Counted from the first letter of the stretch, positions 13,801-35,064 are shown. The stretch is 64,000 nt of DNA from Tubulanus polymorphus (GCF_964204645.1 NW_027437435.1:116836-180835), one strand, 5' to 3'. Made by a program: numbers and translations. The notes: generated by a model from the sequence alone, not told the origin.

Positions 13801-16800
13801 AATATTCCCCCTATCGGAAAAACGACAATGTCGATGCGTAAAAGCGCTCAAATCGTCAGGAAAAGCCCTTTTCGACGCGAAAACGTCGTTCGGCGCGAGA
13901 AAAGACGTTTTCGTATCGAATATTCCCCCTATCGGAAAAACGACAATGCCGATGCGTAAAAGCGCTCAAATCGTCAGGAAAAGCACTTTTCGACGCGAAA
14001 ACGTCGTTCAGCGCGAGAAAAGACGTTTTCTTTTCGAATATTCCCCCTATCGGAAAAACGACAATGCCGATGCGTAAAAGCGCTCAAATCGTCAGGAAAA
14101 GCACTTTTCGACGCGAAAACGTCGCTCAGCGCGAGAAAAGACGTTTTCGTGTCGAATATTCTCCCTATCGGTAAAACGACAATGTCGATGCGTAAAAGCG
14201 CTCATATCGTCAGGAAAAGCACTTTTCGACGCGAAAACGTCGTTCAGCGCAAGAAAAGACATTTTCTTTTCGAATATTCCCCCTATCGGAAAAACGACAA
14301 TGTCGATGCGTAAAAGCGCTCAAATCGTCAGGAAAAGCACTTTTCGACGCGAAAACGTCGTTCAGCGCGAGAAAAGACGTTTTCTTATCGAATATTCCCC
14401 CTATCGGAAAACGACAATGCCGATGCGCAAAAGCGCTCAAATCGTCAGGAAAAGCACTTTTCGACGCGAAAACGTCGTTAAGCGCGAGAAAAGACGTTTT
14501 CGTATCGAATATTCCCCCTATCGGAAAAACGACAATGCCGATGCGTAAAAGCGCTCAAATCGTCTGGAAAAGCACTTTTCGACGCGAAAACGTCGTTCAG
14601 CGCGAGAAAAGACGTTTTCTTTTCGAATATTCCCCCTATCGGAAAAACGACAATGTCGATGCGTAAAAGCGCTCAAATCGTCAGGAAAAGCACTTTTCGA
14701 CGCGAAAACGTCGTTCAGCGCGAGAAAAGACGTTGTCGTGTCGAATATTCTCCCTATCGGTAAAACGACAATGTCGATGCGTAAAAGCGCTCAAATCGTC
14801 AGGAAAAGCGCTTTTCGACGCGAAAACGTAGTTCAGCGCGAGAAAAGACGTTTTCTTATCAAATATTCCCCCTATCGGAAAAACGACAATGTCGATGCGT
14901 AAAAGCGCTCAAATCGTCAGGAAAAGCACTTTTCGACGCGAAAACGTCGTTCAGCGCGAGAAAAGACGTTTTCGTATCGAATATTCTCACTATCGGTAAA
15001 ACGACAATGTCGATGCGTAAAAGCGCTCAAATCGTCAGGAAAAGCACTTTTCGACGCGAAAACGTCGCTCAGCGCGAGAAAACCCGTTTTCTTTTCGAAT
15101 ATTCCCGCTATCGGAAAAACGACAATGCCGATGCGTAAAAGCGCTCAAATCGTCAGGAAAAGCACTTTTCGACGCAAAAACGTCGCTCAGCGCGAGAAAA
15201 GACGTTTTCTTTTCGAATATTCCCCCTATCGGAAAAACGACAATGCCGATGCGTAAAAGCGCTCAAATCGTCAGGAAAAGCACTTTTCGACGCGAAAACG
15301 TCGCTCAGCGCGAGAAAAAACGTTTTCTTTTCGAATATTCCCCCTATCGGAAAAACGACAATGCCGATGCGTAAAAGCGCTCAAATCGTCAGGAAAAGCA
15401 CTTTTCGACGCGAAAACGTCGCTCGGCGCGAGAAAAGACGTTTTCTTTTCGAATATTCCCCCTATCGGAAAAACGACAATGCCGATGCGTAAAAGCGCTC
15501 AAATCGTCAGGAAAAGCACTTTTCGACGCGAAAACGTCGTTCGGCGCGAGAAAAGACGTTTTCGTATCGAATATTCCCCCTATCGGAAAAACGACAATGC
15601 CGATGCGTAAAAGCGCTCAAATCGTCAGGAAAAGCACTTTTCGACGCGAAAACGTCGTTCGGCGCGAGAAAAGACGTTTTCGTATCGAATATTCTCACTA
15701 TCGGTAAAACGACAATGCCGATGCGTAAAAAGCGCTCAAATCGTCAGGAAAAGCACTTTTCGACGCGAAAACGTAGTTCAGCGCGAGAAAAGACGTTTTC
15801 TTATCGAATATTCCCCCTATCGGAAAAACGACAATGTCGATGCGTAAAAGCGCTCAAATCGTCAGGAAAAGCACTTTTCGACGCGAAAACGTCGTTCGGC
15901 GCGTGAAAAGACGTTTTCGTATCGAATATTCTCCCTATCGGAAAAACGACAATGTCGATGCGTAAAAGCGCTCAAATCGTCAAGAAAAGCACTTTTCGAC
16001 GCGAAAACGTCGCTCAGCGCGAGAAAAGACGTTTTCGTGTCGAATATTCTCCCTATCGGTAAAACGACAATGTCGATGCGTAAAAGTGCTCAAATCGTCA
16101 GGAAAAGCACTTTTCGACGCGAAAACGTAGTTCAGCGCGAGAAAAGACGTTTCCTTATCAAATATTCCCCCTATCGGAAAAACGACAATGTCGATGCGTA
16201 AAAGCGCTCAAATCGTCAGGAAAAGCACTTTTCGACGCGAAAACGTCGTTCAGCGCGAGAAAAGACGTTTTCTTTTCGAATATTCCCCCTATCGGAAAAA
16301 CGACAATGCCGATGCGTAAAAGCGCTCAAATCGTCAGGAAAAGCACTTTTCGCCGCGAAAACGTCGTTCAGCGCGAGAAAAGACGTTTTCGTACCGAATA
16401 TTCTCACTATCTGTAAAACGACAATGTCGATGCGTAAAAGCGCTCAAATCGTCAGGAAAAGCACTTTTCGACGCGAAAACGTCGTTCGGCGCGAGAAAAG
16501 ACGTTTTCGTGTCGAATATTCTCCCTATCGGTAAAACGACAATGTCGATGCGTAAAAGCGCTCAAATCGTCAGGAAAAGCACTTTTCGACGCGAAAACGT
16601 AGTTCGGCGCGAGAAAAGACGTTTTCTTATCGAATATTCTCACTATCGGTAAAACGACAATGTCGATGCGTAAAAGCGCTCAAATCGTCAGGAAAAGCAC
16701 TTTTCGACGCGAAAACGTCGTTCAGCGCGAGAAAAGACGTTTTCGTGTCGAATATTCTCCCTATCGGTAAAACGACAATGTCGATGCGTAAAAGCGCTCA

Positions 16801-16905
16801 AATCGTCAGGAAAAGCACTTTTCGACGCGAAAACGTAGTTCAGCGCGAGAAAAGACGTTTTCTTATCGAATATTCCCCCTATCGGAAAAACGACAATGTC
16901 GATGC
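1883..16905 (+). repeat. 118-bp tandem satellite array, ~127 monomers, forward orientation
   Basis: Consensus AATATTCCCCCTATCGGAAAAACGACAATGTCGATGCGTAAAAGCGCTCAAATCGTCAGGAAAAGCACTTTTCGACGCGAAAACGTCGTTCAGCGCGAGAAAAGACGTTTTCGTATCG. Offsets between repeated spurious ORFs are multiples of 118. Confidence 0.98.
7306..14410 (+). repeat. Tandem duplication of a 3540-bp (30-monomer) higher-order unit
   Basis: Rare variants recur at +3540 (CGAATATGCC 7451/10991; CAGGTAAA ~7603/11143), as do ORF pairs 8265/11805, 8900/12440, 9327/12867 and 9962/13502. Confidence 0.92.
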
Positions 16906-18610
16906 GAAAAGTGCTTTTCTTGACGATTTGAGCGCTTTTACGCATCGACATTGTCGTTTTTCCGATAGGGGGAATATTCGATACGAAAACGTCTTTTCTC
17001 GCGCTGAGCGACGTTTTCGCGTCGAAAAGTGCTTTTCTTGACGATTTGAGCGCTTTTACGCATCGACATTGTCGTTTTTCCGATAGGGGGAATATTTGAT
17101 AAGAAAACGTCTTTTCTCGCGCTGAACTACGTTTTCGCGTCGAAAAGTGCTTTTCCTGACGATTTGAGCGCTTTTACGCATCGACATTGTCGTTTTACCG
17201 ATAGGGAGAATATTCGACACGAAAAGGTCTTTTCTCGCGCTAAACGACGTTTTCGCGTCGAAAAGTGCTTTTCCTGACGATTTGAACGCTTTTACGCATC
17301 GGCATTGTCGTTTTTACGATAGGGCGAATATTCGATACGAAAACGTCTTTTCTCGCGCTGAGCGACGTTTTCGCGTCGAAAAGTGCTTTTCCTGACGATT
17401 TGAGCGCTTTTACGCATCGACATTGTCGTTTTTCCGATAGGGGGAATATTCGATACGAAAACGTCTTTTCTCGCGCTGAACGACGTTTTCGCGTCGAAAA
17501 GTGCTTTTCCTGACGATTTGAGCGCTTTTACGCATCGACATTGTCGTTTTACCGATAGGGAGAATATTCGACACGAAAACGACTTTTCTCGCGCTGAGCG
17601 ACGTTTTCGCCTCGAAAAGTGCTTTTCCTGACGATTTGAGCGCTTTTACGCATCGGCATTGTCGTTTTTCCGATAGTGAGAATATTCGAAAAGAAAACGT
17701 CTTTTCTCGCGCTGAACGACGTTTTCGCGTCGAAAAGTGCTTTTCCAGACGATTTGAGCGCTTTTACGCATCGGCATTGTCGTTTTTCCGATAGGGGGAA
17801 TATTCGATACGAAAACGTCTTTTCTCGCGCCGAACGACGTTTTCGCGTCGAAAAGTGCTTTTCCTGACGATTTGAGCGCTTTTACTCATCGGCATTGTCG
17901 TTTTTCCGATAGGGGGAATATTCGATACGAAAACGTCTTTTCTCGCGCCGAACGACGTTTTCGCGTCGAAAAGTGCTTTTCCTGACGATTTGAGCGCTTT
18001 AACGCATCGACATTGTCGTTTTACCGATAGGGAGAATATTCGACACGAAAACGTCTTTTCTCGCGCTAAACGACGTTTTCGCGTCGAAAAGTGCTTTTCC
18101 TGACGATTTGAGCGCTTTTACGCATCGACATTGTCGTTTTTCCGATAGGGGGAATATTCGATACGAAAACGTCTTTTCTCGCGCTGAGCGACGTTTTCGC
18201 GTCGAAAAGTGCTTTTCCTGACGATTTGAGCGCTTTTACGCATCGACATTGTCGTTTTTCCGATAGGGGGAATATTCGATACGAAAACGTCTTTTCTCGC
18301 GCTAAACGACGTTTTCGCGTCGAAAAGTGCTTTTCCAGACGATTTGAGCGCTTTTACGCATCGGCATTGTCGTTTTTCCGATAGGGGGAATATTCGATAC
18401 GAAAACGTCTTTTCTCGCGCCGAACGAGGTTTTCGGGTCGAAAAGTGCTTTTCCTGACGATTTGAGCGCTTTTACGCATCGGCATTGTCGTTTTTCCGAT
18501 AGGGGGAATATTCGATACGAAAACGTCTTTTCTCGCGCCGAACGACGTTTTCGCGTCGAAAAGTGCTTTTCCTGACGATTTGAGCGCTTTTACGCATCGA
18601 CATTGTCGTT
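16906..18610 (-). repeat. 118-bp satellite, reverse orientation, ~14.5 monomers
   Basis: Reverse complement of the same monomer begins at ...GATGCG|AAAAGTGCTTTTC. Confidence 0.97.
18605..18610 (+). repeat. Left 6-bp target-site duplication GTCGTT
   Basis: GTCGTT|AGTAATT on the left and AATTACT|GTCGTT on the right. Removing the element and one copy restores an uninterrupted monomer. Confidence 0.95.
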
Positions 18611-18700
18611 AGTAATTAGAATATGTGGCTTTCATACCAGAGGACGAGAGGACGAGACACCACTCATCACCACAAGTAATTTTTTTTCCTAATAAATGGG
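18611..18700 (+). repeat. Left terminal inverted repeat (~90 bp), extending through the pPolB start codon
   Basis: Reverse complement of 34939-35058 apart from a ~30-bp duplication in the right copy. Confidence 0.95.
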
Positions 18701-21700
18701 GGAGAATGAACACCAACTAGAAAACAATAATGTCAATAAAAATCAATATTATTGTCAATATTGTAAAAAATACATCGATACATCTAATAAAACACGACAT
18801 GAAAAAACTGCAAATCATATAAAAAATGTAATAGATTTTGAAACTCCAGAAAATTCCAATGAAAGAAAAGAACGATTAGAAAATATGAATGTGAATGAAA
18901 TAAAATGTGAAGTTTGTGATGAATTTATAACAAAAAGGAATTATAATAGACATCTCGAAACAGAAAAATACCATCAAAATTTGAGAAATAATGTTTTAGG
19001 AATAGATTATTTTGATGATAAACCTCAACAAGTAAAAGAATCAACTTCAAAAACTAAATCCATTTCAAATAAACCTTACATGGAAAATGTTAGAAATTAT
19101 ATTGATTCACTAGAAATAAAAGATACAATTGAAATCTTAGAAACATTACATAGTAAAATTGGTCCTGCAGCTATTATATTTAGATTTTTTAAAGGTACAA
19201 CAATAGAAGATTATAGTAAATTTAATGAAATAATAGAAAAAATACTAGATTTGATAACAGATGTTGAATATCCAAAAATTAGTATCTCTGGGAAAGTAAG
19301 TTTTATAAAGTCAGAAGAAAAAATGAATTATAATATTCAAACACTCTCTGAAGAAATAATTTCAAAAACACAAATAAAAGAGAAGTTAGAAAAAATATTA
19401 AATGAATTTAAACGTCATATTGAAGAAAGATATTTTGAGGGTTCTGGCTTAACATTGAATGAAATTATATATTTAGATTTAAATGTTTATAATACAAAAA
19501 GGAATAAAACATCAAAAAGTAATAAAATGTTTAAAAATGATTCAAACACTTCAACAGAAAAGGATATGAAAGCATCAAGTTATATCAAATTACCGTTTAC
19601 AACAAAAGCAGTAATAAATATTCAAAATGAAGATAATAAATGTTTTCTATGGTCAATTATTAGTTGTTTACACCAAACAGAAGATATGACGCATAGTTTT
19701 AGAATAACAAATTACCAGAAATATGAAACATTATATAAAATTGATCAATATCCAGTAACTATCCAGTAACTAAAATGATTCCTAAAATAGAAAAAATTAA
19801 TAATTTAAAAATAAATGTATTCGAATTAATGCAATTACCAAAGACAAAAGGTGAAAATATTAAAGATTATACATTGGAAGCTTTATATTTAACAGAATAT
19901 TATGATGATGAAAATGCTATAGATTTGTTATATTATAAAAAAGATGAAAATGAACATTATATGTGGTAAAACAAATTGATTTATTCTTTAGAACGGAAAG
20001 TGATCATCATCGTAAAATTTATCTATGTAGAAAATGTTTATCTAAATTTATGACTGAGAATACATTATTAAAACATAAAGAATTATGTGATAATAAAGAT
20101 TTTTGTAAATTAATAATGCCAACAGAAAAAGATTATAAATTGAAATTTACTAATCATAAATTTAAGAATATTGTTCCATTTGTTCCATTTGTAATTTATG
20201 GGGATTTTGAATCGTTGAATAAAGAATTAACTGATCAAGATAGAAAAGAAATATATAACAAAAAGCAATTATTAAAATCAATGGATAAAGGAAATGAATT
20301 AAATGAAGACGCAACACAAGACCCACCAATTATAAATACAATTTAAAAAGTTCATCAAAGAGCTGCTGCTTATGGAATTTACATCAAATCAAATTATCCC
20401 GAATTATATGAAAGTCAATATATTTCTTTTAGAGGTGAAAATGTAGTTAATGATTTTTGTGATAAAATGATTGAATTAGAAAGTGATTTTACAAAATTAT
20501 TAAACAAAAATAAAAGAAAAGTTATGACAAAAGAAGATGAAATTGATTTTAATTATGCAACTCATTGTTGTTATTGTGAAAAACGTTTTTATTCATTTGA
20601 TAAAAGAGTTAGAGATCATGATCATTTGAATTCAAAATATCGTGGAGCTTCTCATGAAGATTGCAATTTACAAGCTAAAAAAGTAAATTTCGTACCAATA
20701 TTATTTCATAATTTATCAGGATATGATACCCATCTATTTATAAAACAATTATCGGGAAAATTGGGCGCAATTAATCAAGAAATAGAAGAATATAATGCTA
20801 TGAATGAAGCAAATGTAAGAAAATATGATTTTAAACTATTAGCTAAAACATCTGAAAATTATATTTCATTTCAATTTGGTTGCATTAGATTTTTAGATTC
20901 TTATAGATTTCTAGCAAGTTCATTAGATAATTTATCAAAAAGTTTAGTTGATAATGATTTTGTTATAACTCGATATTATTATCCAAATGAACAAGATTTT
21001 AAATTATTGAGATATAAAGGCGCAATTCCTTACTCATTTTATAAAACACACGATGATTTTAATGTAACAGAATTATTAAAAGATCAATTTTATGATCAAT
21101 TAAAAGAGGAGTATGTGAAAGACGAAGTGTTTAATAGAACATTAAATATTTGGAACCATTTTAAGATGAAAAATCATGGGGAATTAGTTGATTTATATTT
21201 AAAATCAGATGTTATGATATTGGCTGACATATTTGAAAAGTTTAGAGAAGTTAATCTAAACCATTTTAATGTTGACCCTTGTTATTGTTATTCAAGTCCT
21301 GGTTTAACCTGGCAATGTGGTTTAAAATATACAAATGTAGAATTAGATTTATTAAATGAACCAGATATGGTTTTATTATTTGAAAAATCAATTAGAGGTG
21401 GAATTAGTGGTGTTATGGGAGATAGGTATTTTAAAGCAAATGATGAATATAAATTATTATATATTGACGCCAATAATTTATATGGTTGGGCAATGATGCA
21501 ACCTCAACCATATACAAATTTTATATTAACAGAAGTTGAAAATGATGATAAAACTAATTGGGAAAGCGCAATTATGAGTTTAGAAGATGAAGCACCAATT
21601 GGTTATTTCTTTGTAGTTGATTTAGAATATCCTGATAACATAAAGTTTAAAACAAGAAACTTACCTTATTGCCCAGAACATTTAACTGTAGATGATAGTT

Positions 21701-23781
21701 ATTTAAGTGAATACCAGAAGAAAATAAAACCGAAAGATCATGTTTTTACAGAAAAATTAATACTTACTCAAAATAATAAATACAATTATATTGTTCATTA
21801 TAGAATGTTAAAATTTTATCTAAAACAAGGAATGAAATTAAAGAAAGTACATAGATATATTGAATTTAATCAATCGAAGTGGTTAGAAAAATATATAGAT
21901 TTCAATACTCAACAGAGAACAATATCAAAAACAGATTTTGAAAAAGATTTCTTCAAATTAATGAATAATAGTTTTTATGGTAAAACATGTGAAAATATTA
22001 GAAATAGAAATGATATTGAATTAGTAAATAATTCTGAACGATTGAGACACCTACAATCAAGTCCTAGACATTTAGGAAATAAAAGGTTTGAGGATTATTT
22101 GACCGCGGTAAAATTAAAAAGAACGTCAATGAAATTTAATAAACCTATTTTCATTGGTTCAACAGTTTTAGAAATATCAAAATTATTAATGTATAATTTT
22201 TATTATAATGTTTTACAACCATTGTTTGGGGAAAAACATATAGAAATTCTGTACTTCGATTCTGTAACGGCCGACACCCCAATATTATTAAAATGTAATA
22301 ATAAAATATTGGTAAGAAGAATTTCAGAAATAATTCCAAAACAAAATGAATGTTATATTTCATATGGAGAAAAAGAATTAATACAAATAAATGGATTAAT
22401 GGATGTTTGGACAAGAAATGGATGGAAAAAATTAAAGAATATTATTAGGCATAAAACAAATAAGAAAATCTATAGAGTTAGAACTAAATTAGGATTCGTA
22501 GATGTTACTGAAGACCATAGTTTAATTAAACGAAATGGTGATGAAATAAAACCAACTGATATAAAAATTGGAGATGAATTATTACATAAAAGATTTTTCC
22601 AAAGAATGAATCTTAAGTCATTTGATGAAATAATTGATAATATTTATAATATAGAACCTGAAACATTAGAAGAAAAAGAATATTTTATCAAAGGATTTTT
22701 CATGGGTGACGGTTCAGCAGGTGTGTATAAATATGTTTGGGGTAATAAATATTGTTGGTATTTATGCAATCAAGACTTAAAATTATTAGAAAGAATTAAG
22801 AAATTTTGCGAAGAAGTTTATTCACATAAAACATTTAGAATCATGGATGTTATGAAATCATCAGCAGTTTATAGAATACTTGTAAATAATCCTAAAGATT
22901 TTGCTATAGAATATAATGATGAATTCTATATTCATGCAATAGTGAAAAGTAATACTTCAACTAAAGAAAAAATAGTACCAGATTATATATTAAATTCAGA
23001 ATATAATCTTAGAAAATGGTTCTTCATTGGGTTCTACGCAGTCGATGGTACTAAAAAATTTACAAAGGATAAAAAGATAACCTTTACACAGAAAGGAAAA
23101 GTTGCGATATCAGGGTTAAATATATTATGTAATTCATTAGGTTTCAATATGAATATTGGATTGATTAAATCTAAACCAAATTGCTTTAATCTAAGCCACA
23201 CAGAAAAAGATTTAACTGAAGAAGTTAAAGATTTATTTGAAATATATAACCCAACTGACTATGTTTATGATTTATCAACAGATGATGGAACATTCAATTC
23301 TGGGTTCCCATTAATCCAAAAAAATACTGATGCGTACATACTAAAAATGAAGACAAATGACATAACGAAAGACTTAAAAACATTAAAACATCATTTTGAT
23401 TTTAGCAATTATGCTAAAGATCATGAACTATTTAGCAATGATAATAAAAAGATTCCTGGTAAATTTAAAGATGAATTAGGGGGTGATGAAATGATTGAAT
23501 TTGTTGGGATAAGAAGTAAAATGTATAGTTACAGAACAAAAGATCACGAAGCTAAAAAGTTAAAAGGAATAACAAAACATGTGGTTGATAAACATATAGA
23601 ATTTCAAGATTATATAAAGTGTTTATATAAATCAATTGTAATGAAACACAAGATGAATTGTTTAAGATCAGAAGATCATGAGATGTACATTAATGAAGTT
23701 GAAAAAACTAGTTTGAATCCATTTGATGATAAAAGGCATATTTCAGATGATGGTATAAAAACATTACCTTATGGTTATTAA
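18696..23781 (+). pseudogene. polB: Protein-primed family B DNA polymerase polyprotein (zinc fingers, putative terminal protein, OTU-like protease, exonuclease with EndoVII-like insert, polymerase with intein), disrupted
   Basis: Motifs IYGDFES (ExoI), FHNLSGYD (ExoII), YLKSDV (ExoIII), YIDANNLYG (A), KLMNNSFYGK (B), YFD|TD (C), GKFKDE, KMY and KLKGI. Split into four ORFs by an 11-bp duplication (19749-19770), a 1-bp deletion (~19967) and an in-frame TAA (20344-20346). Confidence 0.95.
22261..23325 (+). mobile_element. Intein (355 aa) with LAGLIDADG homing endonuclease, in pPolB motif C
   Basis: LYFD|SVTADTPI...IQKN|TDA; block B VTEDH; two LAGLIDADG-like motifs IKGFFMGDG and FIGFYAVDG; block F VYDLST. 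Confidence 0.95.
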
Positions 23782-25079
23782 AACATAAAATCAATATCAT
23801 CATACTCGAAATCACTATTGGCTTCTTCATTTTCATTTAATTGTTCAGGTTCTTCTTCCATTCCATTTTTCTCATTTAAATAAAGTTCTATCTTGTTCCA
23901 CATTTCATCTCGCTCTCTTTGTTTCTTTTTGTTTGTTAATTCATCAAATGGAATTATAATATCTAGGTTTAAATAATTTACAATCTTATTTAAAAAGAAT
24001 TCATAATTTATTGAATCTGTTATTCTATTTTCCAAATGATACATTAATATTTGTTTAAATATTTTTTTTATATTTTCCATATCTTCTTCTGTTAATTTAG
24101 GTTTTTCATAATAATCGTTAAATAATAAATATAAATACATTTTCTTTTGTTTTGTGTTAAATGTTGGTGGAATAATTGTTTTTATAATATCTTTTTTAGT
24201 TATTTCACCATTTTTATTTTCTATTATTTTCATTTTTTCAAGCCATTGCATATATTCTGGTGTATGATCTTCTATAGAAAATATTTTAAAAATTTCATCT
24301 AGATAATTTAATTTTGGTTCTATGAGAAAATCTCTAGTTTTTTCTTCACCCCATAAATTCTTTTGCCATCCACATTCAACACAAAATAACACAGTACCTT
24401 CTTGCCTTAAGGTCGCATAACTACATTGTGGGCATTTTTGTTTATAATTTCTTGGTAATAGATCTTCATTAAGCTCTTGGTATTTTCTTACGTTTTCTTT
24501 ATGTTTTATTGTTCTATTATGTAGATTTGAATTACTTGTTGTAATAATCAATTTACAATATTTACAATAATATGTTTTTCTTGTTAATTCATTATATTGT
24601 TTTTCTAACTTTTCAACTGTTTCTTTATTATCTGGTAACGTTTTCTCATATTTTATTTTTTCTAATAAATTATTTTTTCTTTCATTGAATTCAGTTTCAA
24701 ATTTATTAGAAATTTTATCTATATGTGCTTTACGAAATTGATGATTCTCCCAATCTTCTATATTTTCAGGGTTATATTTTACTTGACAAGGCTCACAGAA
24801 ATAATCTTTTATATTATCCTTATCATAGAATAAGAAAGGTCTTTTCCAAATAACTTCAGGTTCAACTTCAGCAGAATTACTATCAACATTAGCTGTTGCA
24901 CCATTAATTCTACACTTCTCTGAATGTTTTTTAACATAATTTCTTGAGAATAATTTATTACATTTTGGACAGTTTATTTTAGGGGGTTTATAATTTTCAT
25001 CATGTTTTTTCATATGTCGAGCCATATTACTTTTTCTTAGAAGTTCACCACAAATTTCGCATGCTATCTTCTCATCCAT
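23778..25079 (-). CDS. Multi-zinc-finger protein with a C-terminal VLTF3 (poxvirus A2)-like late transcription factor region
   Basis: About four C2H2/C2HC fingers, then a CPQC-x13-CVECG zinc ribbon and SINYEFFLNKI...IPFDELTNKKKQRERDEMWNKI, resembling the recalled VLTF3 C-terminal pattern (Y.Y.L.K....L......P.LK...K....D..W..I). Confidence 0.7.
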   Translation of the reverse strand: MDEKIACEICGELLRKSNMARHMKKHDENYKPPKINCPKCNKLFSRNYVKKHSEKCRINGATANVDSNSAEVEPEVIWKRPFLFYDKDNIKDYFCEPCQVKYNPENIEDWENHQFRKAHIDKISNKFETEFNERKNNLLEKIKYEKTLPDNKETVEKLEKQYNELTRKTYYCKYCKLIITTSNSNLHNRTIKHKENVRKYQELNEDLLPRNYKQKCPQCSYATLRQEGTVLFCVECGWQKNLWGEEKTRDFLIEPKLNYLDEIFKIFSIEDHTPEYMQWLEKMKIIENKNGEITKKDIIKTIIPPTFNTKQKKMYLYLLFNDYYEKPKLTEEDMENIKKIFKQILMYHLENRITDSINYEFFLNKIVNYLNLDIIIPFDELTNKKKQRERDEMWNKIELYLNEKNGMEEEPEQLNENEEANSDFEYDDIDFMF

Positions 25080-25147
25080 TTATTAAGGAATAATTTTATT
25101 AAAATTAATTTTTAGTGATGAGCGGTAATTTTTTTATGTTATAAATA

Positions 25148-25909
25148 ATGGTAGAATTAAAAGAATACAGAATATTTATTGATTCTAGAAAACTTACAAA
25201 TTATAAATCTCATAATTTACTAGTACAATTAGATAGAGAATTCAAGAATTGTGTAGATTTAAAATTAGTTAATATAAGTTTATGTAATTCTTTTTACAAT
25301 GTATCGGATAAGTCTATTGAACATAGAGTCTTTTTAGTTTTTAATAAAAATAAAAATGAATGGGTCTATATATATTTAAAACCAGGGTTATATAATTTAG
25401 ATACATTAGCACAAGAAATTAATAGAAAAGCCTGGCACAAATTAGGTAGTAGTTCTGGGTTTAGTATTAGATTTTTAAAAAGTGAGAGTTCTGATAGAAT
25501 AAAGATAAGGTTGTCTAATAGTGAAAAACATAAACTTATGGTAAAAAAACCTATAGCTAAACTGTTAGGAATTCTTCCAGATAGATCTTTTACAAATATT
25601 GATGCTACTACACCAAACTTAATACCTTACACACATTTTTATATTTATTGCAATTTAATCGATCCTACAAAAACATTCGAAGCAACTAAAGATATAACTT
25701 GTAATTCTGGTTTACTAAACATTTTACCATTGAAGAATGTTAAAGAATTTGGAACGCAAATAAATTATAATTTAACAGAATGTGATTTCAAACCATGCAT
25801 TCCTAGTTTTAATAATTTTAGATTAGAAATTAGAAATCATAATGGATACTTAATTGATTTAAATAATTTCCCTGTAATTTATGAATTAGTTATAAGATGT
25901 AAAGAGTAA
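25148..25909 (+). CDS. Minor capsid protein (penton, single jelly roll)
   Basis: Penton-like pattern: IFIDSR, SFYNV, PGLYN, FYIYCNLI, LNILP, FRLEIRNHNGYLIDLN; beta-rich. Confidence 0.8.
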   Translation: MVELKEYRIFIDSRKLTNYKSHNLLVQLDREFKNCVDLKLVNISLCNSFYNVSDKSIEHRVFLVFNKNKNEWVYIYLKPGLYNLDTLAQEINRKAWHKLGSSSGFSIRFLKSESSDRIKIRLSNSEKHKLMVKKPIAKLLGILPDRSFTNIDATTPNLIPYTHFYIYCNLIDPTKTFEATKDITCNSGLLNILPLKNVKEFGTQINYNLTECDFKPCIPSFNNFRLEIRNHNGYLIDLNNFPVIYELVIRCKE

Positions 25910-25926
25910 TTTTTTTCACTATATAA

Positions 25927-26268
25927 ATGAATATAACTGTTGGACCGAGTATATGTTTTGGGTTTGATTTTAAACATGGTAAAGAAATGAGAATTAAACT
26001 AAATGATGTAATTACTGATATAAAAAGTAAATCATTTAACAATGCATCAATGATTGATAAAGAAAAGTATAATATAGAAAAAGTAATTGATTTAATTAAA
26101 TCACCTTTAGAATATTATGAATTAAATGAAGATGGAATTATTGAAGATATTAAAAACATATTAACCAAAATATATGATAATCATAAAACTAGTAATGAAA
26201 TAAATGTTGAATTAATCATAAATAAGTTAACTAAATATTTTGATGATAGTAATTTTTTTGATAAATAA
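25927..26268 (+). CDS. Hypothetical protein
   Basis: 113-aa ORF with TAAATG start, in the collinear gene block. Confidence 0.75.
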   Translation: MNITVGPSICFGFDFKHGKEMRIKLNDVITDIKSKSFNNASMIDKEKYNIEKVIDLIKSPLEYYELNEDGIIEDIKNILTKIYDNHKTSNEINVELIINKLTKYFDDSNFFDK

Positions 26269-26490
26269 ATGAGTGATAATAAGTGGATAATAACTGGATT
26301 ATATAATGGCGCATTACTATCAGTTGGAACTGTTGGTTATTCAATGGTATTAAAAAAAGTATTCAAAATGGGAAGTGTTAATGTTGATAGATTTGATATA
26401 AATGATATTCTAAAATTAACATTAGCAGTTACTTTATCTAATTTAACTATTGATTACTTGGAAAAACAAAAATATATTCCTCCCATATAA
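26269..26490 (+). CDS. Small hydrophobic protein, putative virion membrane protein
   Basis: 73 aa, two moderately hydrophobic segments, TAAATG start abutting the upstream stop. Confidence 0.75.
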   Translation: MSDNKWIITGLYNGALLSVGTVGYSMVLKKVFKMGSVNVDRFDINDILKLTLAVTLSNLTIDYLEKQKYIPPI

Positions 26491-26514
26491 ATACATAATT
26501 TTTTTGTTAAATAA

Positions 26515-26937
26515 ATGGCTTCTGCAATTATAACTATTATAGGATCAGCAATTGTTAACGCTTTAGCATTTACTGGTGGTGGTTATTTATTTAAACATAT
26601 TGATAAAAATAGTTCATTAGGAGAACAAAGAAGACATAACTTAGCGTTAGAGAAATACAATAAAGCTGCAGAAGAATATAGAGAAAAGAGACAAAACTAT
26701 ATGGATTATATTAACAAAGAATTATATGATCAGAAGATTTCACACAGAGATTTTCAATCAGTTGATGATGCAATGAGTTTATATAACGCAGTAACAAATA
26801 AAGAAAAATTACATCTATACAAACCTAAATTATCAGATTATTATACCCCAAGTAAAGAACAACAGAAATATGAAATAATATGGATTTTAGGTGGAACTGT
26901 TATTGTTATATTTGTTGCTTATAAATTTACTAATTAG
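26515..26937 (+). CDS. Putative membrane protein (N- and C-terminal hydrophobic helices, central helical region)
   Basis: MASAIITIIGSAIVNALAFTGGGYLF...RHNLALEK...IIWILGGTVIVIFVAY; TAAATG start. Confidence 0.8.
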   Translation: MASAIITIIGSAIVNALAFTGGGYLFKHIDKNSSLGEQRRHNLALEKYNKAAEEYREKRQNYMDYINKELYDQKISHRDFQSVDDAMSLYNAVTNKEKLHLYKPKLSDYYTPSKEQQKYEIIWILGGTVIVIFVAYKFTN

Positions 26938-26956
26938 TAATTTTTATTCTAAATAA

Positions 26957-27391
26957 ATGGAAGATAAAGTTGATAGTATTGATATTATTCCTCATGATAT
27001 AAATAAAACTAAATTAAAAACATATTTAGAAAAACAAATATTAGAATTTGAAAGTGACTTAAAGATAAAAAAGAAAAAATATTTAAAATCTAAAATTATA
27101 GATTATTTGATTATAAGTGGTTCGGTTACAATTAGTTCTGTAATAACATTTCTAGCAATATTCAGTCCATTAACACCTTTAGCTATATCAATTGGTGTAT
27201 TAGGATTAAGTTCAAGTGTTTTAACTGGTATAAGTTCAAAATTAAATATAAAAAGTAATAAAGAAAAAATTAAAACTAATATAAAAGAAATTAATAAATT
27301 AAAGAATACACTAGATTATATAATAAGTTTAAATGGTCATATAACAGTTGAAGAACAAGATAAATTATTAAAAGAATTAGTTAATTATTAA
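26957..27391 (+). CDS. Two-TM-helix protein with flanking coiled coils
   Basis: Hydrophobic hairpin at aa ~51-95; TAAATG start. Confidence 0.8.
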   Translation: MEDKVDSIDIIPHDINKTKLKTYLEKQILEFESDLKIKKKKYLKSKIIDYLIISGSVTISSVITFLAIFSPLTPLAISIGVLGLSSSVLTGISSKLNIKSNKEKIKTNIKEINKLKNTLDYIISLNGHITVEEQDKLLKELVNY

Positions 27392-27407
27392 TTTTTTAAT
27401 TATATAA

Positions 27408-28709
27408 ATGGGGTTTCCAAAAGCTTTCCAATATAATAAATCAATTAAATATAATATTCCGGCAATAGATTTTAAGAAAAATATTACATATAAAAATATA
27501 GTTTTAAATTCATTAACTAATTTAGAAATTTATGTTAATGAATCACAGTTTTTTATTTCTAAAATGGAAAATATATTTAATACATATGAAGTTACTTTTA
27601 CTCGAGATGAATATCATATATATAAAGTAAAATCTAATATGAAATATTGGCAGAATCAATTAAATTTTGCTGTTTATTGTGCAACAACAGGATGTGGAAT
27701 TAGTTGGAATGATCATTTAAATAACTTAGATAAAAATTTGAAGTATTCTGATTTAAAATTAATTCACACAATATTTAGATTTCACACATATTTTCAAATC
27801 AGAATAATATTAAATGAATTAGAATGTCCTTTACCCGGGTCTAAATATTTTAAAGAATTGGATAATAATATTAATATATCCAAGTTTTATAAAATATGTA
27901 ATGAATTTAATATAAATATTAATTCCGATTTCAGAGCGCATGGTAAATTGCAAGGTGTTGGTGAACAGTAGGAAATAAAAAGAATTGATTATATGCATAG
28001 AATTGGAGCTTATCATAATTATAAAATTGATAATAATAATGGTTGGGTTAATTTCATTTTAGAAAATGGTGAAGGTTTTACAAAATCAGTTATACAAAGA
28101 ATAAATCAATCTATTAGAATTTATTTGATATGTATTTTAGGCGCTCAAGTTGAAACAAGATCCCCAATAATTGGAAATGATAACACTTCATTCGATGCGC
28201 AGAAACAGTTTAAAGTTTTATTTGAAGATTCAATTCATAATTATAAAAATAGATCGATTCCAGAAAACATTATAAGATATCAAAATTATTTAGATAAATC
28301 TCATGTAAGACTAAATTATTGTATAGGCCCTAATCTATTAATTATTTCTAATGATTTAGTATTAAAGATGGGAAACATAATTGGTTATAATAATCTAATT
28401 AAAACTGCAACAATAAATAATTCATTTGGGTTAAATGATATAAATAAAAAGATTATCACTGCTCCAAAATTAATGGAAGGTGAAAAAAATAAAAAACACA
28501 TTCAATCAACTGAAACTAAAACTAAGAATATTAAATTGGATAATGATTCCAAAATAAAAGATTACAATACATCAGAAAATATAAAAACTGATAAAATTCA
28601 ACATGATATAATTAAAACTGATAATGATAATAAATCACATGAAAATACTAAATTAGCTATAACTTGTATAGGAATTGTAATCGGAGGAATATTATATTTT
28701 AAATTTTAA
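27408..28709 (+). pseudogene. Polinton protein of unknown function with C-terminal TM anchor, interrupted by one in-frame TAG (27969-27971)
   Basis: ORFs 27408-27971 and 27993-28709 are in the same frame and only the first has a TAAATG start. Motifs QLNFAVYCATTGCG and ILGAQVETRS. Confidence 0.75.
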
Positions 28710-28726
28710 TTTTTTTTATTATATAA

Positions 28727-30166
28727 ATGGAAGTAGAAGGTGTAGAAGATATTGGAATGGATCCTTTTGATGAACCTGGTATAACTGATGAACAACCACC
28801 TGATTTTGATGAAACAAGTTTCAGTAACGAAAATGAAACAGCATATAATTCTAATTTAGCAAGACCTGATACCAATGAATATGTTAATAAAGCACGTTCA
28901 AGATTGGATATTGAAAATGAAAATCCAGATTTAATGAAAAAAGAACTAGAATATGACGAATTAACAGATAAATTCAAACCAATATTAGAAAAATCTGGAT
29001 TCAATATAACAAATAAAGGTGTGAATTATTTAGTAAAAGATTTGAAATATTTAAATGGTGATTATTATTGGCATTTGAAAGATGACTATTATTTTAAGAT
29101 TTCTTCTAATAAAAGTCTTGATAAAATAATAACAAAATCAACTTTTATTAAATTAGAACAATCTAAAATTAAAAAAATCAATAATGATGTTATAACTGAT
29201 GTTACAGAAGAAGAGATAAATCAAAATAGAAGAGAATTTAATCGAAGAAATAATGATTTTTTGAAGATAATTAATGAAAATTTAGAACCAGAAACAATTC
29301 CTAAAGAAGATAAAACTTCCAAAACTAGTAGACCTAATTCAAGAGAAGTTCAAACTGAAAAACTTTTACCGAAGGGATTACTTGATGCAACAGATCAAGA
29401 ATTAGAAGATTTAGATATATTTTCTGATAAAGCAATTAGAGAAATTATTAGTATAAGACTTGCATCTGATAAAATTGCACATAATAAAAGTATAAGAGAT
29501 TTTAAAATTAGAACTTTAGAAAAAGAATTAACTGATAAAAATAAAGAAATAGAACAATTAAAGTCTGATTTAGATCATCAAGTAATTGATGAAATAGAAT
29601 ATAGGCAAAAAGAATTACGTTTAGAAAAAGAAAAAGATGATTTAGAATATAACATAGAATTACAAAAAGAAGAAATTAAATTATTGTTAAAATCATATGA
29701 TTATAATATTAATAGATTAAAAGTTATTTTTAAAGATTTGTTGATTAAACCAAATTCTGAAATATCACTAAAAGACAGAATAAGATTATTATTTAAATTA
29801 GAAGGAATAACAATTCTTTCAATTCTAACAGCTGTAACTATGTTATTCACAACAATAGGTTTAGCAATATCAAATGCTTTGAAATCTACTCCTACTCCCA
29901 ATAAACCAGATAAACCTCCAGGTAATAATTCTATACAAGATAAAGTTAAGGATGGTTTAAAGAAATTAGCAAAATATTTATGGGAACTATCTAAAAAATC
30001 TGCTGCAGCATTGCCAGGAGTTATTGCTTCAATTGTTGGTTTTATATTGAAATCTGCAGGAAACATTATTAACTTTGCTGCTGAACATATTATTTTATTT
30101 TTAATTACGGTTGTAAGTGCTATTATTTTTGGTTTAGTAAATATGATATCAAAAAATATCAAGTAA
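28727..30166 (+). CDS. Acidic/coiled-coil protein with C-terminal hydrophobic helices (putative membrane-active or virion protein)
   Basis: 479 aa; DETSF motif, coiled coil at aa ~255-330, EGITILSILTAVTMLFTTIGLAI and ALPGVIASIVGFIL. Confidence 0.8.
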   Translation: MEVEGVEDIGMDPFDEPGITDEQPPDFDETSFSNENETAYNSNLARPDTNEYVNKARSRLDIENENPDLMKKELEYDELTDKFKPILEKSGFNITNKGVNYLVKDLKYLNGDYYWHLKDDYYFKISSNKSLDKIITKSTFIKLEQSKIKKINNDVITDVTEEEINQNRREFNRRNNDFLKIINENLEPETIPKEDKTSKTSRPNSREVQTEKLLPKGLLDATDQELEDLDIFSDKAIREIISIRLASDKIAHNKSIRDFKIRTLEKELTDKNKEIEQLKSDLDHQVIDEIEYRQKELRLEKEKDDLEYNIELQKEEIKLLLKSYDYNINRLKVIFKDLLIKPNSEISLKDRIRLLFKLEGITILSILTAVTMLFTTIGLAISNALKSTPTPNKPDKPPGNNSIQDKVKDGLKKLAKYLWELSKKSAAALPGVIASIVGFILKSAGNIINFAAEHIILFLITVVSAIIFGLVNMISKNIK

Positions 30167-30207
30167 ACCATGATAAAAAATAAATAATTAATTTTTTTGT
30201 TAAATAA

Positions 30208-31455
30208 ATGAGTGGGAGTTATATAAGCCCTTCCAAGATTTCTAGAATATCTAATGCTATTAAAGCAGAAAGATCACATCATATAATTACTCATAACCCT
30301 TCAAATATTAATCCCGATGAAACTTTATATGTTAGAATTCCTAGATTAACACAAAATACTTTTTATGTTCCAAATAGTATTTATTTATCAGCTGATATAA
30401 AAGTAATCGGTAATAACAATAATTATGTTGTTGATGATGTTGGAAGATATTTGATTAAAAAGTTAACAATAAAGATTGGTCCAGAAACAGTTTTCTCATT
30501 AGATGATTATAATTTATTTATGCATTATAAAGATTTATGGTTAACTAAAGAAAATAGAAATAATATGATATTTCAGGGTATTCAATCAGAAAACCAAAAT
30601 AAATTAAGATCAGAAGCTAATAGCGCAATATTAACAAATGATGTAGATAAATTGATAAAAAGTATATATGGAAGCAAATATAAAATTCCATTAGACTTTG
30701 AATTGATAAATAATAATGCACCTTTATATAAATACGCAATTCAAGAAGATATTATATTTGAGATAACATTTGCTCCTGTAAATGAAATTGTATTATCTAG
30801 CGTTAATAAAGATATGAGTTATAAATTATCGAATATATGTTTAGAATATGATACAGTAACTGATGAAAATATTTCAAGTATAATTCAAACTAAATATAAT
30901 CAAGGGTTTTCATTATTATATGATTATATTGATAAATTTAAAACTGTAACTATTAATGCAAATGATGAAATAATTAATGAGAATATTAACTTTCCTAGAA
31001 GATCTATTAAAGGTATATTAATATTTTTTACTATTGCAACATATTCTAATGGTGCAATAAATGTTGATAATTATTATAATCCTGAAATAACAAAAGTAGA
31101 AATAACTATCGAAGGAATAGCGAATAAAATATTTTGTCAAGGAATGAGAATGATTGATCAATGGCCAGAAATTAAAAAACATTTTATGAATGAAAAAGTA
31201 AAATCATTTGAAAATTGTAATATTAATCAAATTGATTATTATACCGGTAATAAATATGCATTATGGTTAGATTTTAGAACAACAGAGGATAATTCATTAC
31301 ATGGTTCTGGGAAAAAACTACAAAATACAAAAGATGGAATACAATTATTCATGACAAAGAATAAAGGAATCAAAAATTTTAAAATGCATATTTATATTAT
31401 ATCTGACGCGCAATTAAATATTGTAAATTCACAATTAGATAGTATTCAATATTAG
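30208..31455 (+). CDS. Major capsid protein (double jelly roll)
   Basis: 415 aa, beta-rich, next to integrase and ATPase; NPSNINPDETLYVRIP, NICLEYD, RSIKGILIFF and LWLDFR patterns as recalled for polintovirus MCPs. Confidence 0.8.
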   Translation: MSGSYISPSKISRISNAIKAERSHHIITHNPSNINPDETLYVRIPRLTQNTFYVPNSIYLSADIKVIGNNNNYVVDDVGRYLIKKLTIKIGPETVFSLDDYNLFMHYKDLWLTKENRNNMIFQGIQSENQNKLRSEANSAILTNDVDKLIKSIYGSKYKIPLDFELINNNAPLYKYAIQEDIIFEITFAPVNEIVLSSVNKDMSYKLSNICLEYDTVTDENISSIIQTKYNQGFSLLYDYIDKFKTVTINANDEIINENINFPRRSIKGILIFFTIATYSNGAINVDNYYNPEITKVEITIEGIANKIFCQGMRMIDQWPEIKKHFMNEKVKSFENCNINQIDYYTGNKYALWLDFRTTEDNSLHGSGKKLQNTKDGIQLFMTKNKGIKNFKMHIYIISDAQLNIVNSQLDSIQY

Positions 31456-31485
31456 AAATATAAAGTTAAAATTAAGGATATATAA

Positions 31486-32613
31486 ATGAGTGGTAAAAAA
31501 ACTCCTAATACTAAAGAACAATATTTAAGAAATTTATATTACAACCCTGAGAGTTCGGTTGCTTATTCTTCTACTAAAAATATATGGCGTAAAGTAAAAC
31601 AAGATAAATTAGATAAGATAATCCCACAAAATTTAGTTAAATATAAAGATAAAAATGAATTTATGTTAGAACAACCAACATATACAACACATAAAAAAAT
31701 TGTTAGAAAATATAAAACTCGTAAAACTATGGTAAGTTATGTAGATCAACAGTGGCAAGGAGATTTAATTGATATGAAAAATCTTAAAAAAGATTATAAT
31801 GATTATTGGTGGATATTGAATATAATTGATATTTTTAGTCGTTATGTATGGAGCTTCCCACTTTATAGAAAAGATGCTGCACAAACATCACATGTTTTAA
31901 GAAAATTTCTTTCAGGTGGTAAACTAAAACCAGAAAAAATACAATTTGATGATGGAAAAGAATTTGATAATTCATTAGTTCATGGACTTTTAGATTTTCA
32001 TAATATTAAATATTTTTCAACAAAATCAGATAAAAAAGCAGCAGTTGTTGAACGATTTAATAGAACATTAAGAACAAGAATGTGGAAATATTTTACAGCA
32101 AATAATACTTTGAAATGGATTGATATTTTACCAAAATTGATAGAAGGATATAATAATTCTTATCATTCTTCTATTGGAATGAAACCTATTAATGCTAGAA
32201 AACCTGAAAATGCTGAAATTGTTTGGAATAATTTATATGGAGCATTTCTTATAGATGATTTTGGTGAATCTAAATTTAAAGTTGGTCAAAATGTTAGAAT
32301 TTCTAAGTATAAAAAGATATTTGATAAAGGATACGATCGAAATTTTACTAGGGAAATATATAAAATAAAAAAGGTAATAACAACAAAACCATATGTCTAT
32401 AAATTAGAAGATTTAGATGGTGAAGAAGTTGATGGCTACTTTTACGAAGAAGAATTAAGTTTAACTACTGAAAATCTAGAACAAGAATATAAAATTGAAA
32501 AAGTACTAAAAACAAAAACTGTTAAAAGAAAAAAATATTCTTTAGTAAAATGGGTTGGATGGCCAGATAAATTTAATGAATGGATATTATCAAGTAAAAT
32601 TAAAAATATATAA
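31486..32613 (+). CDS. int: Retroviral-like (rve) DDE integrase with C-terminal chromodomain
   Basis: WQGDLID, IDIFSRY, QFDDGKEF, VVERFNRTL and YNNSYHSSIGMKP; chromodomain YKIEKVL...LVKWVGWPDKFNEWI. Reading frame intact. Confidence 0.95.
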   Translation: MSGKKTPNTKEQYLRNLYYNPESSVAYSSTKNIWRKVKQDKLDKIIPQNLVKYKDKNEFMLEQPTYTTHKKIVRKYKTRKTMVSYVDQQWQGDLIDMKNLKKDYNDYWWILNIIDIFSRYVWSFPLYRKDAAQTSHVLRKFLSGGKLKPEKIQFDDGKEFDNSLVHGLLDFHNIKYFSTKSDKKAAVVERFNRTLRTRMWKYFTANNTLKWIDILPKLIEGYNNSYHSSIGMKPINARKPENAEIVWNNLYGAFLIDDFGESKFKVGQNVRISKYKKIFDKGYDRNFTREIYKIKKVITTKPYVYKLEDLDGEEVDGYFYEEELSLTTENLEQEYKIEKVLKTKTVKRKKYSLVKWVGWPDKFNEWILSSKIKNI

Positions 32614-33222
32614 ATGAATAAGGAATTATTTATATTTGAGTCTCATAATATGTTAATTTCTGGCGTAACAAATTGTGGAAAAACTTATTTTATATTAAAT
32701 TTATTAGAAACTGTTTATGAAAACTATTTTGATAATATAGTATTATTTTGTCCAACATATGAATTTAATCAAACTTATGATAGAAATATTACTAGGAATA
32801 ATAAATTTATTATATTAGATCCTAAAACAGTAAAAGAAAATTTAGATAATTGTATTAAAATAGCAATTGATATTTATAAAGGATCTAATACATTATTTAT
32901 TATTGATGATTGCGCAAATTTACATGATTCTAAAATTAGAGAAAGTGAGTTATGTTATTTAGCTTTCTCTGGGAGACATTTTGGGATAACAACTTGGGTT
33001 TTAAATCAAAAATATAATTCAATTGTTAAAGACTTTAGAGAAAACATTAGATTTCTAGTTTTATTCTACAATAAAGATAGAAAATCAATGAAAAATGCAC
33101 TTGAGGAAAATGATATTATTCCACATGATTTACATAATGAATATATGGATAAGTTGAAAAATATTAAAAGATCAAAATTACTATTTAGATTACAACACCC
33201 ATTTAAATATGAATTTATTTAA
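32614..33222 (+). CDS. A32/FtsK-HerA-like genome packaging ATPase
   Basis: Walker A GVTNCGKT, Walker B LFIIDD, SGRHFG, LNQ, FREN. Confidence 0.92.
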   Translation: MNKELFIFESHNMLISGVTNCGKTYFILNLLETVYENYFDNIVLFCPTYEFNQTYDRNITRNNKFIILDPKTVKENLDNCIKIAIDIYKGSNTLFIIDDCANLHDSKIRESELCYLAFSGRHFGITTWVLNQKYNSIVKDFRENIRFLVLFYNKDRKSMKNALEENDIIPHDLHNEYMDKLKNIKRSKLLFRLQHPFKYEFI

Positions 33223-33223
33223 A

Positions 33224-33486
33224 TTCAACTAGCTTGTTAATCTAATTGAATTCTAGTTGAATTCTAGTTATTGGTAGTTGTAACAAAAATCAACTAGATT
33301 TAACAATATTTTAACTAGCTTGTCAATCTAGTCTAATTCTAGTTACATTCTAGTTGAATTCTAGTTGTTAGTAGTTGAAACAAAAATCAACTAGATTTAA
33401 CAAGAAATAAACAAAAACAACAATATTTCAACTAGCTTGTTAATCTAGTTGAATTCTAGTTACATTCTAGTTGAATTCTAGTTGCA
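33224..33486. repeat. Intergenic CTAG-rich compound repeat (three units of ~85-115 bp built from 11-bp ATTCTAGTTGA subunits)
   Basis: AACTAGCTTGT starts three units (~33227, ~33313, ~33430); CAAAAATCAACTAGATTTAACAA occurs twice. Confidence 0.85.
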
Positions 33487-33517
33487 ACATCACACAATTA
33501 ATTTATTTGTTTTATAA

Positions 33518-34123
33518 ATGGGAGGTGAAAAGAAAATAAAATCTAAAAATGGTGATGTTCCAATTGAAAAAACTTTAGATGATTTAGGAATAACAGAAAC
33601 AAAATTAACTCCAGATGATGGTGCTTTAAATATTGTTACAACAAATAATAATTATGAATATTATCTTTATTGTAAACATCAATTAGAAATATTAATAGCA
33701 TCTGGAAAATGTAAAAATTTTATCGGTAAAAATTTAACTTATAATGAATTAGATACAATGAAATCAGATGAAATTATTAGATTATTTAAGATTTATGAAG
33801 CCGCGAGAACAGCTAGAATTAATGACGCGATATCAGAAAATGTAGTAAAAGGTTATAGTAAATTATGTAATTATATACTACCAATTGAAGATGAAAATAG
33901 ATTATATTCCGATTTAAAAAATGATTATTTAGTTATGACTGAATTAAATAAATGGATTGGATATTTATCATTTCAATTAGGAGGATTTATGACATTATTA
34001 TCAACTGGTGTTATAACATTTTCAAATATTGAAAGTAAAAATATTTCTATAATAAATGAGCGAAGTGAAAGAAGTGAAGGAATTAACTGTGAAGAAAAAA
34101 CCGAGAACTCAGAAACAAATTGA
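33518..34123 (+). CDS. Hypothetical protein with hydrophobic C-terminal segment
   Basis: 201-aa ORF, TAAATG start. Confidence 0.8.
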   Translation: MGGEKKIKSKNGDVPIEKTLDDLGITETKLTPDDGALNIVTTNNNYEYYLYCKHQLEILIASGKCKNFIGKNLTYNELDTMKSDEIIRLFKIYEAARTARINDAISENVVKGYSKLCNYILPIEDENRLYSDLKNDYLVMTELNKWIGYLSFQLGGFMTLLSTGVITFSNIESKNISIINERSERSEGINCEEKTENSETN

Positions 34124-34424: not shown

Positions 34425-34616
34425 TATTTTAGAAAAAAAGCAAAAAAAAATAATTTTTTTTAATTAATTGAATATTAATTGAATATCTCACTACTTTTGT
34501 CTATCACTGTGTGGTGCTGTTTATGGCACCATCTATGTGGAGCAATTAAATTGTCCAGATAAGTCATTTCGGATTCTAGATATTCATTATTTTTATTAAT
34601 TTATTTTTTTTAAAAT

Positions 34617-35058: not shown

Positions 35059-35064
35059 GTCGTT
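35059..35064 (+). repeat. Right 6-bp target-site duplication GTCGTT
   Basis: Matches 18605-18610. Confidence 0.95.

Follow-up and report, generated by a model that had tools for sequence, protein, structure and literature searches.

Tubulanus polymorphus carries, on the 64,000-nucleotide stretch of DNA analysed here (GCF_964204645.1 NW_027437435.1:116836-180835; one strand, referred to as the window and numbered from its first letter), a Polinton/Maverick transposon whose gene for a protein-primed DNA polymerase (pPolB) is interrupted within its catalytic motif. As a preliminary description made from the sequence alone had proposed a homing-endonuclease intein at this position, we were interested whether the inserted segment is indeed a complete intein, from where it may have reached a Polinton polymerase, and whether it could still splice and home.

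The open reading frame (ORF) at 20467-23781 codes for 1104 amino acids (aa) and reads ...EILYFD|SVTADTPILL...NSGFPLIQKN|TDAYILK, with an in-frame segment of 355 aa (22261-23325, plus strand) lying between the D and the T of YFD|TDA. The residues expected for splicing are present as Ser1, T83-E-D-H86 (block B, 22507-22518), Asn355 and Thr+1. The two LAGLIDADG motifs, both of which contain an acidic residue, are GFFMGDGS with D150 (motif 1, FIKGFFMGDGS, 22684-22716) and GFYAVDGT with D262 (motif 2, WFFIGFYAVDGT, 23017-23052). Blocks F and G (23257-23325) read DYVYDLSTDDGTFNSGFPLIQKN and close with Lys354-Asn355, followed by Thr+1; the giant-virus-named locus L086 ends with FNSGFPLIVKN. In an alignment of 39 relatives H86 never varies and T83, D85 and D262 hardly do, and in the region of the first LAGLIDADG motif G145 is invariant and G151 nearly invariant. 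Ser1, the TxxH block, both LAGLIDADG motifs, block F, the KN end and Thr+1, which the preliminary description had named, are thus all present.

Pfam analysis of the segment led to a LAGLIDADG_3 match of 25.3 bits, above the cut-off of 22.5, and among the 39 aligned relatives this domain was matched in 25 and Intein_splicing in 26 (E ≤ 0.001). A sequence search of the PDB returned PI-PkoII (E 1.7e-6). As AlphaFold2 gave an unusable model from the single sequence (pLDDT 33), a model built on the 39-row alignment was used instead (pLDDT 92.0, pTM 0.92). Subsequent Foldseek comparison of this model with the PDB resulted in 92 matches with E ≤ 0.001, led by the TliVMA intein (7qsu; E 1.9e-16, TM 0.63) and PI-PkoII (2cw7; E 9.3e-16) and including PI-PfuI (1dq3), PI-SceI (1vde) and chains of I-DmoI (E about 3e-7, TM to target 0.69-0.76). 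With TliVMA, PI-PkoII, PI-PfuI and PI-SceI the segment shares the two-domain fold (E 1.9e-16 to 1.1e-10, TM to query 0.38-0.63), but it is only 11-18% identical to them in sequence, and they reside in other host proteins. The search for a Hint-domain match, which had been named as a check on the earlier proposal, thus found the Hint fold. Judged from sequence and model, 22261-23325 is a complete intein whose Hint splicing domain is predicted to enclose a LAGLIDADG homing endonuclease with two motifs, in agreement with that proposal.

Nuclease domains of another kind are present in related polymerases: HNH and VSR inserts exist in the Polinton pPolB2 of nematodes, oomycetes and molluscs, according to the available part of PMC10748475, and in PMC11071308, likewise available in part, such inserts are suggested to derive from intein invasions. 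The segment could accordingly be imagined as a non-splicing nuclease domain that is kept in the mature polymerase. It resembles the HNH/VSR inserts, as well as the GIY-YIG/HNH domains of polinton-like virus (PLV) helicases (PMC5499653, available in part), in being a selfish nuclease in a replication protein; unlike these, which as far as the available parts of the two sources describe them have no Hint splicing domain and occupy other positions, it is a complete intein. If it were kept, it would stand between the two catalytic Asp of YxDTD; moreover, Ser1, the TxxH block, the last Asn and Thr+1 are all retained, a full Hint fold surrounds the endonuclease in the model, and the closest relatives at the identical site are PolB inteins. 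We therefore regard this explanation as very improbable.

As had been described, the gene that is split at YxD|TD is the pPolB of a Polinton: the part upstream of the intein (N-extein) matches DNA_pol_B_2 (PF03175, E 2.1e-19) and zf-U1, and the surrounding element has an rve integrase, an A32-type ATPase and terminal inverted repeats (TIRs). The relatives of the intein, on the other hand, are mostly found in another class of polymerase. A phmmer search with the intein against 1.84 billion representatives led to 2072 clusters with E ≤ 1e-3, 263 of them with E ≤ 1e-30 and the best with 2.1e-79, a similarity far above chance level, and the best 150 of the 2072 were examined. When the host domain of the best 30 relatives was tested, classical PolB (PF00136) was found in 30 of 30 and PF03175 in none. 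Flanks of YGD|TDS were seen in 107 of 136 extracted segments. A scan of viral contigs with the intein kept 80 loci, 36 of which have GVMAG in the contig name, which we take to denote a giant-virus bin, and the tail FN(T/S)G(F/Y)xLI(V/I)KN is common to the window and 18 of the 31 giant-virus-type loci translated to the end. The same kind of scan with the extein gave three distant loci, and relatives from a metagenome scan with the intein reached 43% identity at most.

In Mimivirus and archaea, inteins occupy the pol-c site between D and T, with YGD|TDS in Mimivirus, as stated in the available part of PMC549080. The window intein sits at the same D|T point of Y-x-D|T-D-S and shares with these pol-c inteins Ser1, TxxH, the LAGLIDADG endonuclease, the terminal Asn in a Lys-Asn end, and Thr+1; its identity to the giant-virus-type members is 34-44% over the full length. 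It differs from them in its host, which is a protein-primed pPolB (PF03175) instead of an RNA-primed PolB (PF00136), in its flanks (YFD|TDA instead of YGD|TDS), and in that the pPolB copies form a clade of their own. It is a pol-c-type intein of the standard kind whose host gene is unusual. Related inteins were also found in topoisomerase II-type proteins and at the WMD|TDM junction of another protein (among P0348, P0422, P0193, P0436-P0440, P0036 and P0431), and a Chloropicon primus protein with the NCBI name DNA polymerase delta catalytic subunit hosts another (31% identical), indicating that the intein family has moved between several host genes.

Further Polinton pPolBs with an intein at the identical site are present in public data, where the inteins are 40-74% identical to that of the window. 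The occupied pPolBs include clusters of 136, 121 and 55 members, as well as full-length proteins of 1537, 1603 and 1693 aa. The intein is hence already contained, unremarked, in public sequences of a Polinton pPolB clade. One Polinton-type pPolB, P0203, is 58% identical to that of the window and labelled 'Sulfurimonas sp.' in UniRef; it is probably eukaryotic or viral DNA that was binned into a bacterial genome.

For phylogenetic analysis, segments of less than 300 aa and five near-identical members of one cluster were omitted. In a FastTree phylogeny of 126 rows the pPolB-hosted inteins form one clade (9 rows, support 99), and a single clade was again obtained with IQ-TREE for 52 rows (support 99) and, after additional omission of three near-duplicates, for 61 rows (11 pPolB-hosted rows, support 100). 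In this last tree the pPolB clade adjoins an 8-row clade of classical PolB inteins (support 87) within a 45-row set (support 97). One jump of the intein between the polymerase classes, as suggested before, is thus well supported by the sequences, given also that the best 30 relatives are all classical PolBs with YGD|TDS. As the trees are midpoint-rooted and the PolB side is by far the more diverse, we infer the direction PolB to pPolB. The trees would then reflect a single ancient transfer, with a giant-virus PolB gene as donor and a Polinton pPolB gene as recipient, most plausibly in a cell that held both a giant virus and a Polinton. Such a transfer would be possible because both genes code for Y-x-D-T-D at the site, and this shared coding core is probably all that the jump between classes needed.

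The opposite course, in which the intein arose in a Polinton pPolB and entered giant-virus PolB genes afterwards, is compatible with unrooted trees, which place the pPolB rows merely on one side of a branch and have no outgroup. However, the pPolB clade is small (11 rows against 50 others in the 61-row tree), and the 149 library representatives besides P0004 among the best 150 of 2072 have, where readable, essentially all classical PolB hosts. Moreover, the PolB side also takes in inteins at other sites or in other hosts (the pol-b site SAN|S, topoisomerase II), and archaea, too, have the pol-c allele (PMC549080, available in part). A Polinton origin is therefore unlikely.

A survey of sibling Polintons for occupied and empty polymerase genes had been recommended. 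Among the 120 best relatives of the N-extein, the site is empty in 112 and occupied in 4, and another 4 do not extend over it. The intein is accordingly rare in Polinton pPolBs, as had been assumed, with 4 of 116 readable relatives occupied and 112 of 116 showing a contiguous YxD-xDx motif. The closest polymerase relatives (82% and 70% identical), with which the window polymerase nests, are empty and read YFDTDS, and on an extein tree of 104 rows the five occupied rows require at least 4 changes of state (gains or losses). The occurrence is hence patchy. It had also been cautioned that vertical inheritance in a described Polinton clade would remove the novelty; a clade does share the intein, but its distribution within the clade is patchy and not fixed. 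In one 90% cluster, the identity between occupied and empty genes is 95-99% upstream of the site (about 1040 aa) but 88-93% downstream (150 aa), an asymmetry that is expected if the intein arrived together with a donor tract. In 35 of the 112 intein-free relatives (P0195-P0314) Cys replaces Thr between the catalytic Asp residues (YMD-CDS), which is an unusual motif C.

Both states were also detected in raw reads with the same species label. Forty reads join position 22247 to 23324-23336 and spell the uninterrupted YFD|TDS, and another 92 and 54 loose read ends are of the same empty form. Compared with the sequence just upstream, the initial 450 bases of the intein are covered at about 0.6 of the depth (about 225 versus 382). 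As the reads show both forms, occupied and empty alleles coexist in the species. The sequence of the empty site differs at several silent positions from the one guessed in the preliminary description and codes for TDS, not TDA. The Polinton family is multicopy in the species, and the exact window copy is rare or private, as just 43 of 3097 reads are at least 99% like the window. The reads and contigs of four runs also cover both junctions of the intein, and identical junctions occur in independent public proteins; it is thus extremely improbable that a giant-virus fragment was fused to a Polinton during assembly. Between 22050 and 23560, the window mostly has G or C where the bulk of the sibling reads have A or T (C>T 27, G>A 23).

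The host gene in the window is itself damaged. The pPolB begins at 18696, and alignment to the intact relative P0330 (1336 aa) revealed three breaks upstream of the intein, in line with the three 5' lesions reported previously. The first, at 19749-19770, is an 11-bp unit in two tandem copies, which puts the gene out of frame; the second, close to 19966 (19964-19968), shifts the frame by one base; and the third is an in-frame TAA at a position of Lys in the relatives (20344-20346). Another genetic code or introns as the cause of the breaks could be dismissed, as comparison with intact relatives reveals exactly such a duplication, a single-base shift and one TAA. The N-extein (18696-22260, plus strand) comprises zinc fingers, an OTU-like Cys motif, the exonuclease and the palm up to YFD, and was aligned by tblastn with P0330 in three frames at 60-83% identity; the C-extein runs from Thr+1 (TDAYILK...) to the stop codon (23326-23781, plus strand) and is 82% identical to P0330 over 151 aa. 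At the first lesion nearly all of 131 sibling reads, and at the second 181 of 229, are of another length. Since most sibling copies thus do not have the first two breaks, the window copy is a decayed member of a family that otherwise looks better preserved. With the pPolB broken upstream, the precursor would probably not be made from this copy, and the intein here is probably carried along silently. At about 20165-20180, directly before the DxE motif of the exonuclease, a 9-base repeat was found in frame (PFVPFV), and these 9 letters are missing from 157 of 218 sibling reads. In the pPolBs of many relatives a precomputed Endonuclease_7 domain (PF02945) is annotated.

For the family as a whole, splicing may be envisaged by analogy to class-1 inteins, in which an acyl shift at Ser1 is followed by transfer to Thr+1 and cyclisation of Asn355. 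Excision would restore YFDTD(A/S) in the polymerases of the family and YFDTDA at the window site, and it would be needed for a working polymerase, whose two catalytic Asp residues are held apart by the insert. Empty sibling genes that code for YFD|TDS would be cut by the endonuclease, and repair of the cut sites by gene conversion would copy the intein in. We consider it likely that this is the state of the family, that is, a Polinton pPolB intein, predicted to be capable of self-splicing and homing, which was acquired once from a giant-virus PolB.

Several observations weigh against an active intein family of this origin. The Intein_splicing match of the window intein (32.6 bits, E 8.4e-8) is below the curated cut-off of 35.8. 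Class-1 inteins usually have a penultimate His, in the place of which the window intein has Lys354. The preliminary description had taken this Lys for a departure, a view that did not hold: all 31 giant-virus-type loci translated through to the end have KN, so that Lys-Asn is the norm of the intein family, and the pPolB-hosted relatives have H, K or S. With regard to the origin, the trees were rooted at the midpoint only, which leaves the direction of transfer dependent on the root; the sister grouping has a support of 87 and not of 95 or more, the relatives are the best 150 of 2072 clusters, and the target-site DNA of giant-virus loci (15+15 bases) matches the window flanks at 12-17 of 30 positions. 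With regard to the activity, the reads carry the same species label but stem perhaps from another individual, and the empty reads may represent a separate subfamily. The sign of constraint on the intein, where 17 of 29 listed differences between window and siblings are silent while random single changes would give 19% (p 2.5e-6), comes from a subset, as 40 of the 149 differing places are listed. Val261 next to D262 is private to the window copy, with Ala coded by 123 of 123 sibling reads, and Gln353 is found where the relatives have Val or Ile. The intein had been called intact, which is right for its open reading frame but not for these private amino-acid changes, one of them beside a catalytic residue. 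Finally, the host gene has three disabling lesions.

The three breaks and the replacements at residues 261 and 353 would also suit a relic, in which the intein entered Polinton pPolBs once and is now only inherited vertically and being lost, without homing and perhaps with poor splicing. The comparison of intein and extein trees, which had been proposed earlier, points the same way, as both agree in outline and pair the window with P0206. Identities of intein and extein to the window are likewise similar, with 63% versus 54-58% for P0206 and 49% versus 45-46% for P0215. Set against a relic are the excess of silent changes, the retention of both catalytic Asp residues of the endonuclease throughout the pPolB clade, the lower identity on the downstream side, as expected of a conversion tract, and the at least 4 changes of state demanded by the extein tree. 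A relic is therefore conceivable but not likely, and we favour a family predicted still to splice and home, with the window copy as one of its decayed members.

In the open literature, no description of a Hint-type intein in a Polinton pPolB was found. An intein in one Polinton polymerase is reportedly mentioned in the 2006 Polinton paper by Kapitonov and Jurka. The nearest statement is one sentence in the available part of PMC11071308, according to which the nuclease domains inserted in the pPolBs of Polintons point to invasions by inteins. The source of that sentence, PMC10748475, describes HNH and VSR domains in pPolB, and the word intein is absent from the part of that text available. A survey of eukaryotic inteins describes them as scarce in nuclear genomes and names the DNA polymerases of giant viruses as a main host among viruses, and pPolB is not among the commonest nuclear intein hosts in its Table 1, nor named in those parts of the main text and supplement that were searched (PMC5784728).

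A complete intein on a multicopy, virus-like transposon means that one genome holds many occupied and many empty targets, which makes it a natural setting to study homing, loss and co-conversion of inteins in a eukaryotic nucleus. The single pPolB clade among giant-virus PolB inteins is a physical link between two virus groups and shows that polymerase classes with little in common apart from the six-residue catalytic motif can be bridged by a homing element. With a giant virus as the likely donor, the intein would record a past meeting of two kinds of virus.

The setting of the Polinton was read directly from the window. A satellite with a unit of 118 bp and 46% G+C occupies 1883-18610 (TRF period 118, 95% matches; also in the inverted-repeat table) and about 35058-64000, and between the two stretches lies a block of 24% G+C and 16,448 bp (18611-35058). 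Its TIRs (18611-18687, plus strand, and 34982-35058, minus strand) are 77 nt long and 100% complementary, beginning with AG and ending with CT. Both flanks show GTCGTT (18605-18610 and 35059-35064), which are 6 bp of the satellite unit that were doubled by the insertion; otherwise the unit runs on across the element. A target-site duplication (TSD) of 6 bp is said to be the rule for Polintons, reportedly after Kapitonov and Jurka in 2006. Besides DNA_pol_B_2, Pfam analysis identified an rve integrase with chromodomain (31486-32613, plus strand; rve 1e-8, Chromo 2.3e-4), which marks the element as a Polinton, and an A32-type packaging ATPase (32614-33222, plus strand; Pox_A32 1.3e-12). From the pPolB, integrase and ATPase, the TIRs and the 6-bp TSD, the block is a Polinton inserted in satellite DNA, as the earlier picture of a virus nested in a satellite had it, and the perfect TIRs and intact TSD point to a fairly recent insertion. 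Capsid (double jelly-roll), penton and adenain-like protease gave no Pfam match with E ≤ 0.01 in 14 ORFs, a weak DUF5901 match aside, and no fold search was made for them. The element is thus like known Polintons/Mavericks in its pPolB with N-terminal OTU-like motif, rve integrase, A32 ATPase, TIRs and 6-bp TSD, and unlike them in that capsid and protease are without a Pfam match, the TIRs are just 77 nt long and the polymerase has an intein.

Some further features of the element and its surroundings were observed. The satellite array flips its orientation at 16905-16915, which results in kilobase-long inverted repeats about 1.7 kb left of the Polinton. The G+C-richer window copy of the intein region sits in satellite of 46% G+C, the element itself having 24%. 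The inner right end of the Polinton is doubled in tandem (about 29 nt, 34936-35007), and at the left end (18661-18687) 87 reads with a matching 'goes back 26' joint suggest such a doubling in other copies as well. U1-type zinc fingers are found at the N-terminus of the pPolB (18696-19100) and in a divergent 433-aa ORF on the minus strand (23778-25079).

A link to giant viruses could also be sought in the context of the gene starts. One might speculate that the Polintons of this clade multiply, or multiplied, in giant-virus factories, that the shared intein is a footprint of DNA exchange in these factories, and that its endonuclease may serve as a weapon by cutting an intein-free polymerase gene in a giant virus that infects the same cell, which we consider quite improbable. 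If it were true, the TAAATG starts of the Polinton genes would fit transcription by a viral instead of a cellular polymerase; this start context presumably resembles that of poxvirus late promoters. As a link to the closest giant-virus hosts of the intein, however, TAAATG is unsupported, as the loci L001-L003 show just 0-1 of these starts and a median of 10% was obtained for 51 loci.

Within the Polinton, TAAATG is the start of 14 of 16 ORFs, while TAA precedes just 6.7% of the ATGs of the element. The gene starts are at 18696, 25927, 26269, 26515, 26957, 27408, 28727, 30208, 31486, 32614, 33518 and 34056 on the plus strand and at 25079 and 34943 on the minus strand. TAAATGG occurs 14 times in the window compared to 5.3 expected, with 8 of the 14 at ORF starts. 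Upstream of most TAAATG starts, at a distance of about 10-20 bases, a (G/T)TAATTTTTTT run is found, and three genes, namely those of the integrase, the ATPase and the minus-strand zinc-finger ORF, have TAAAATTA upstream instead.

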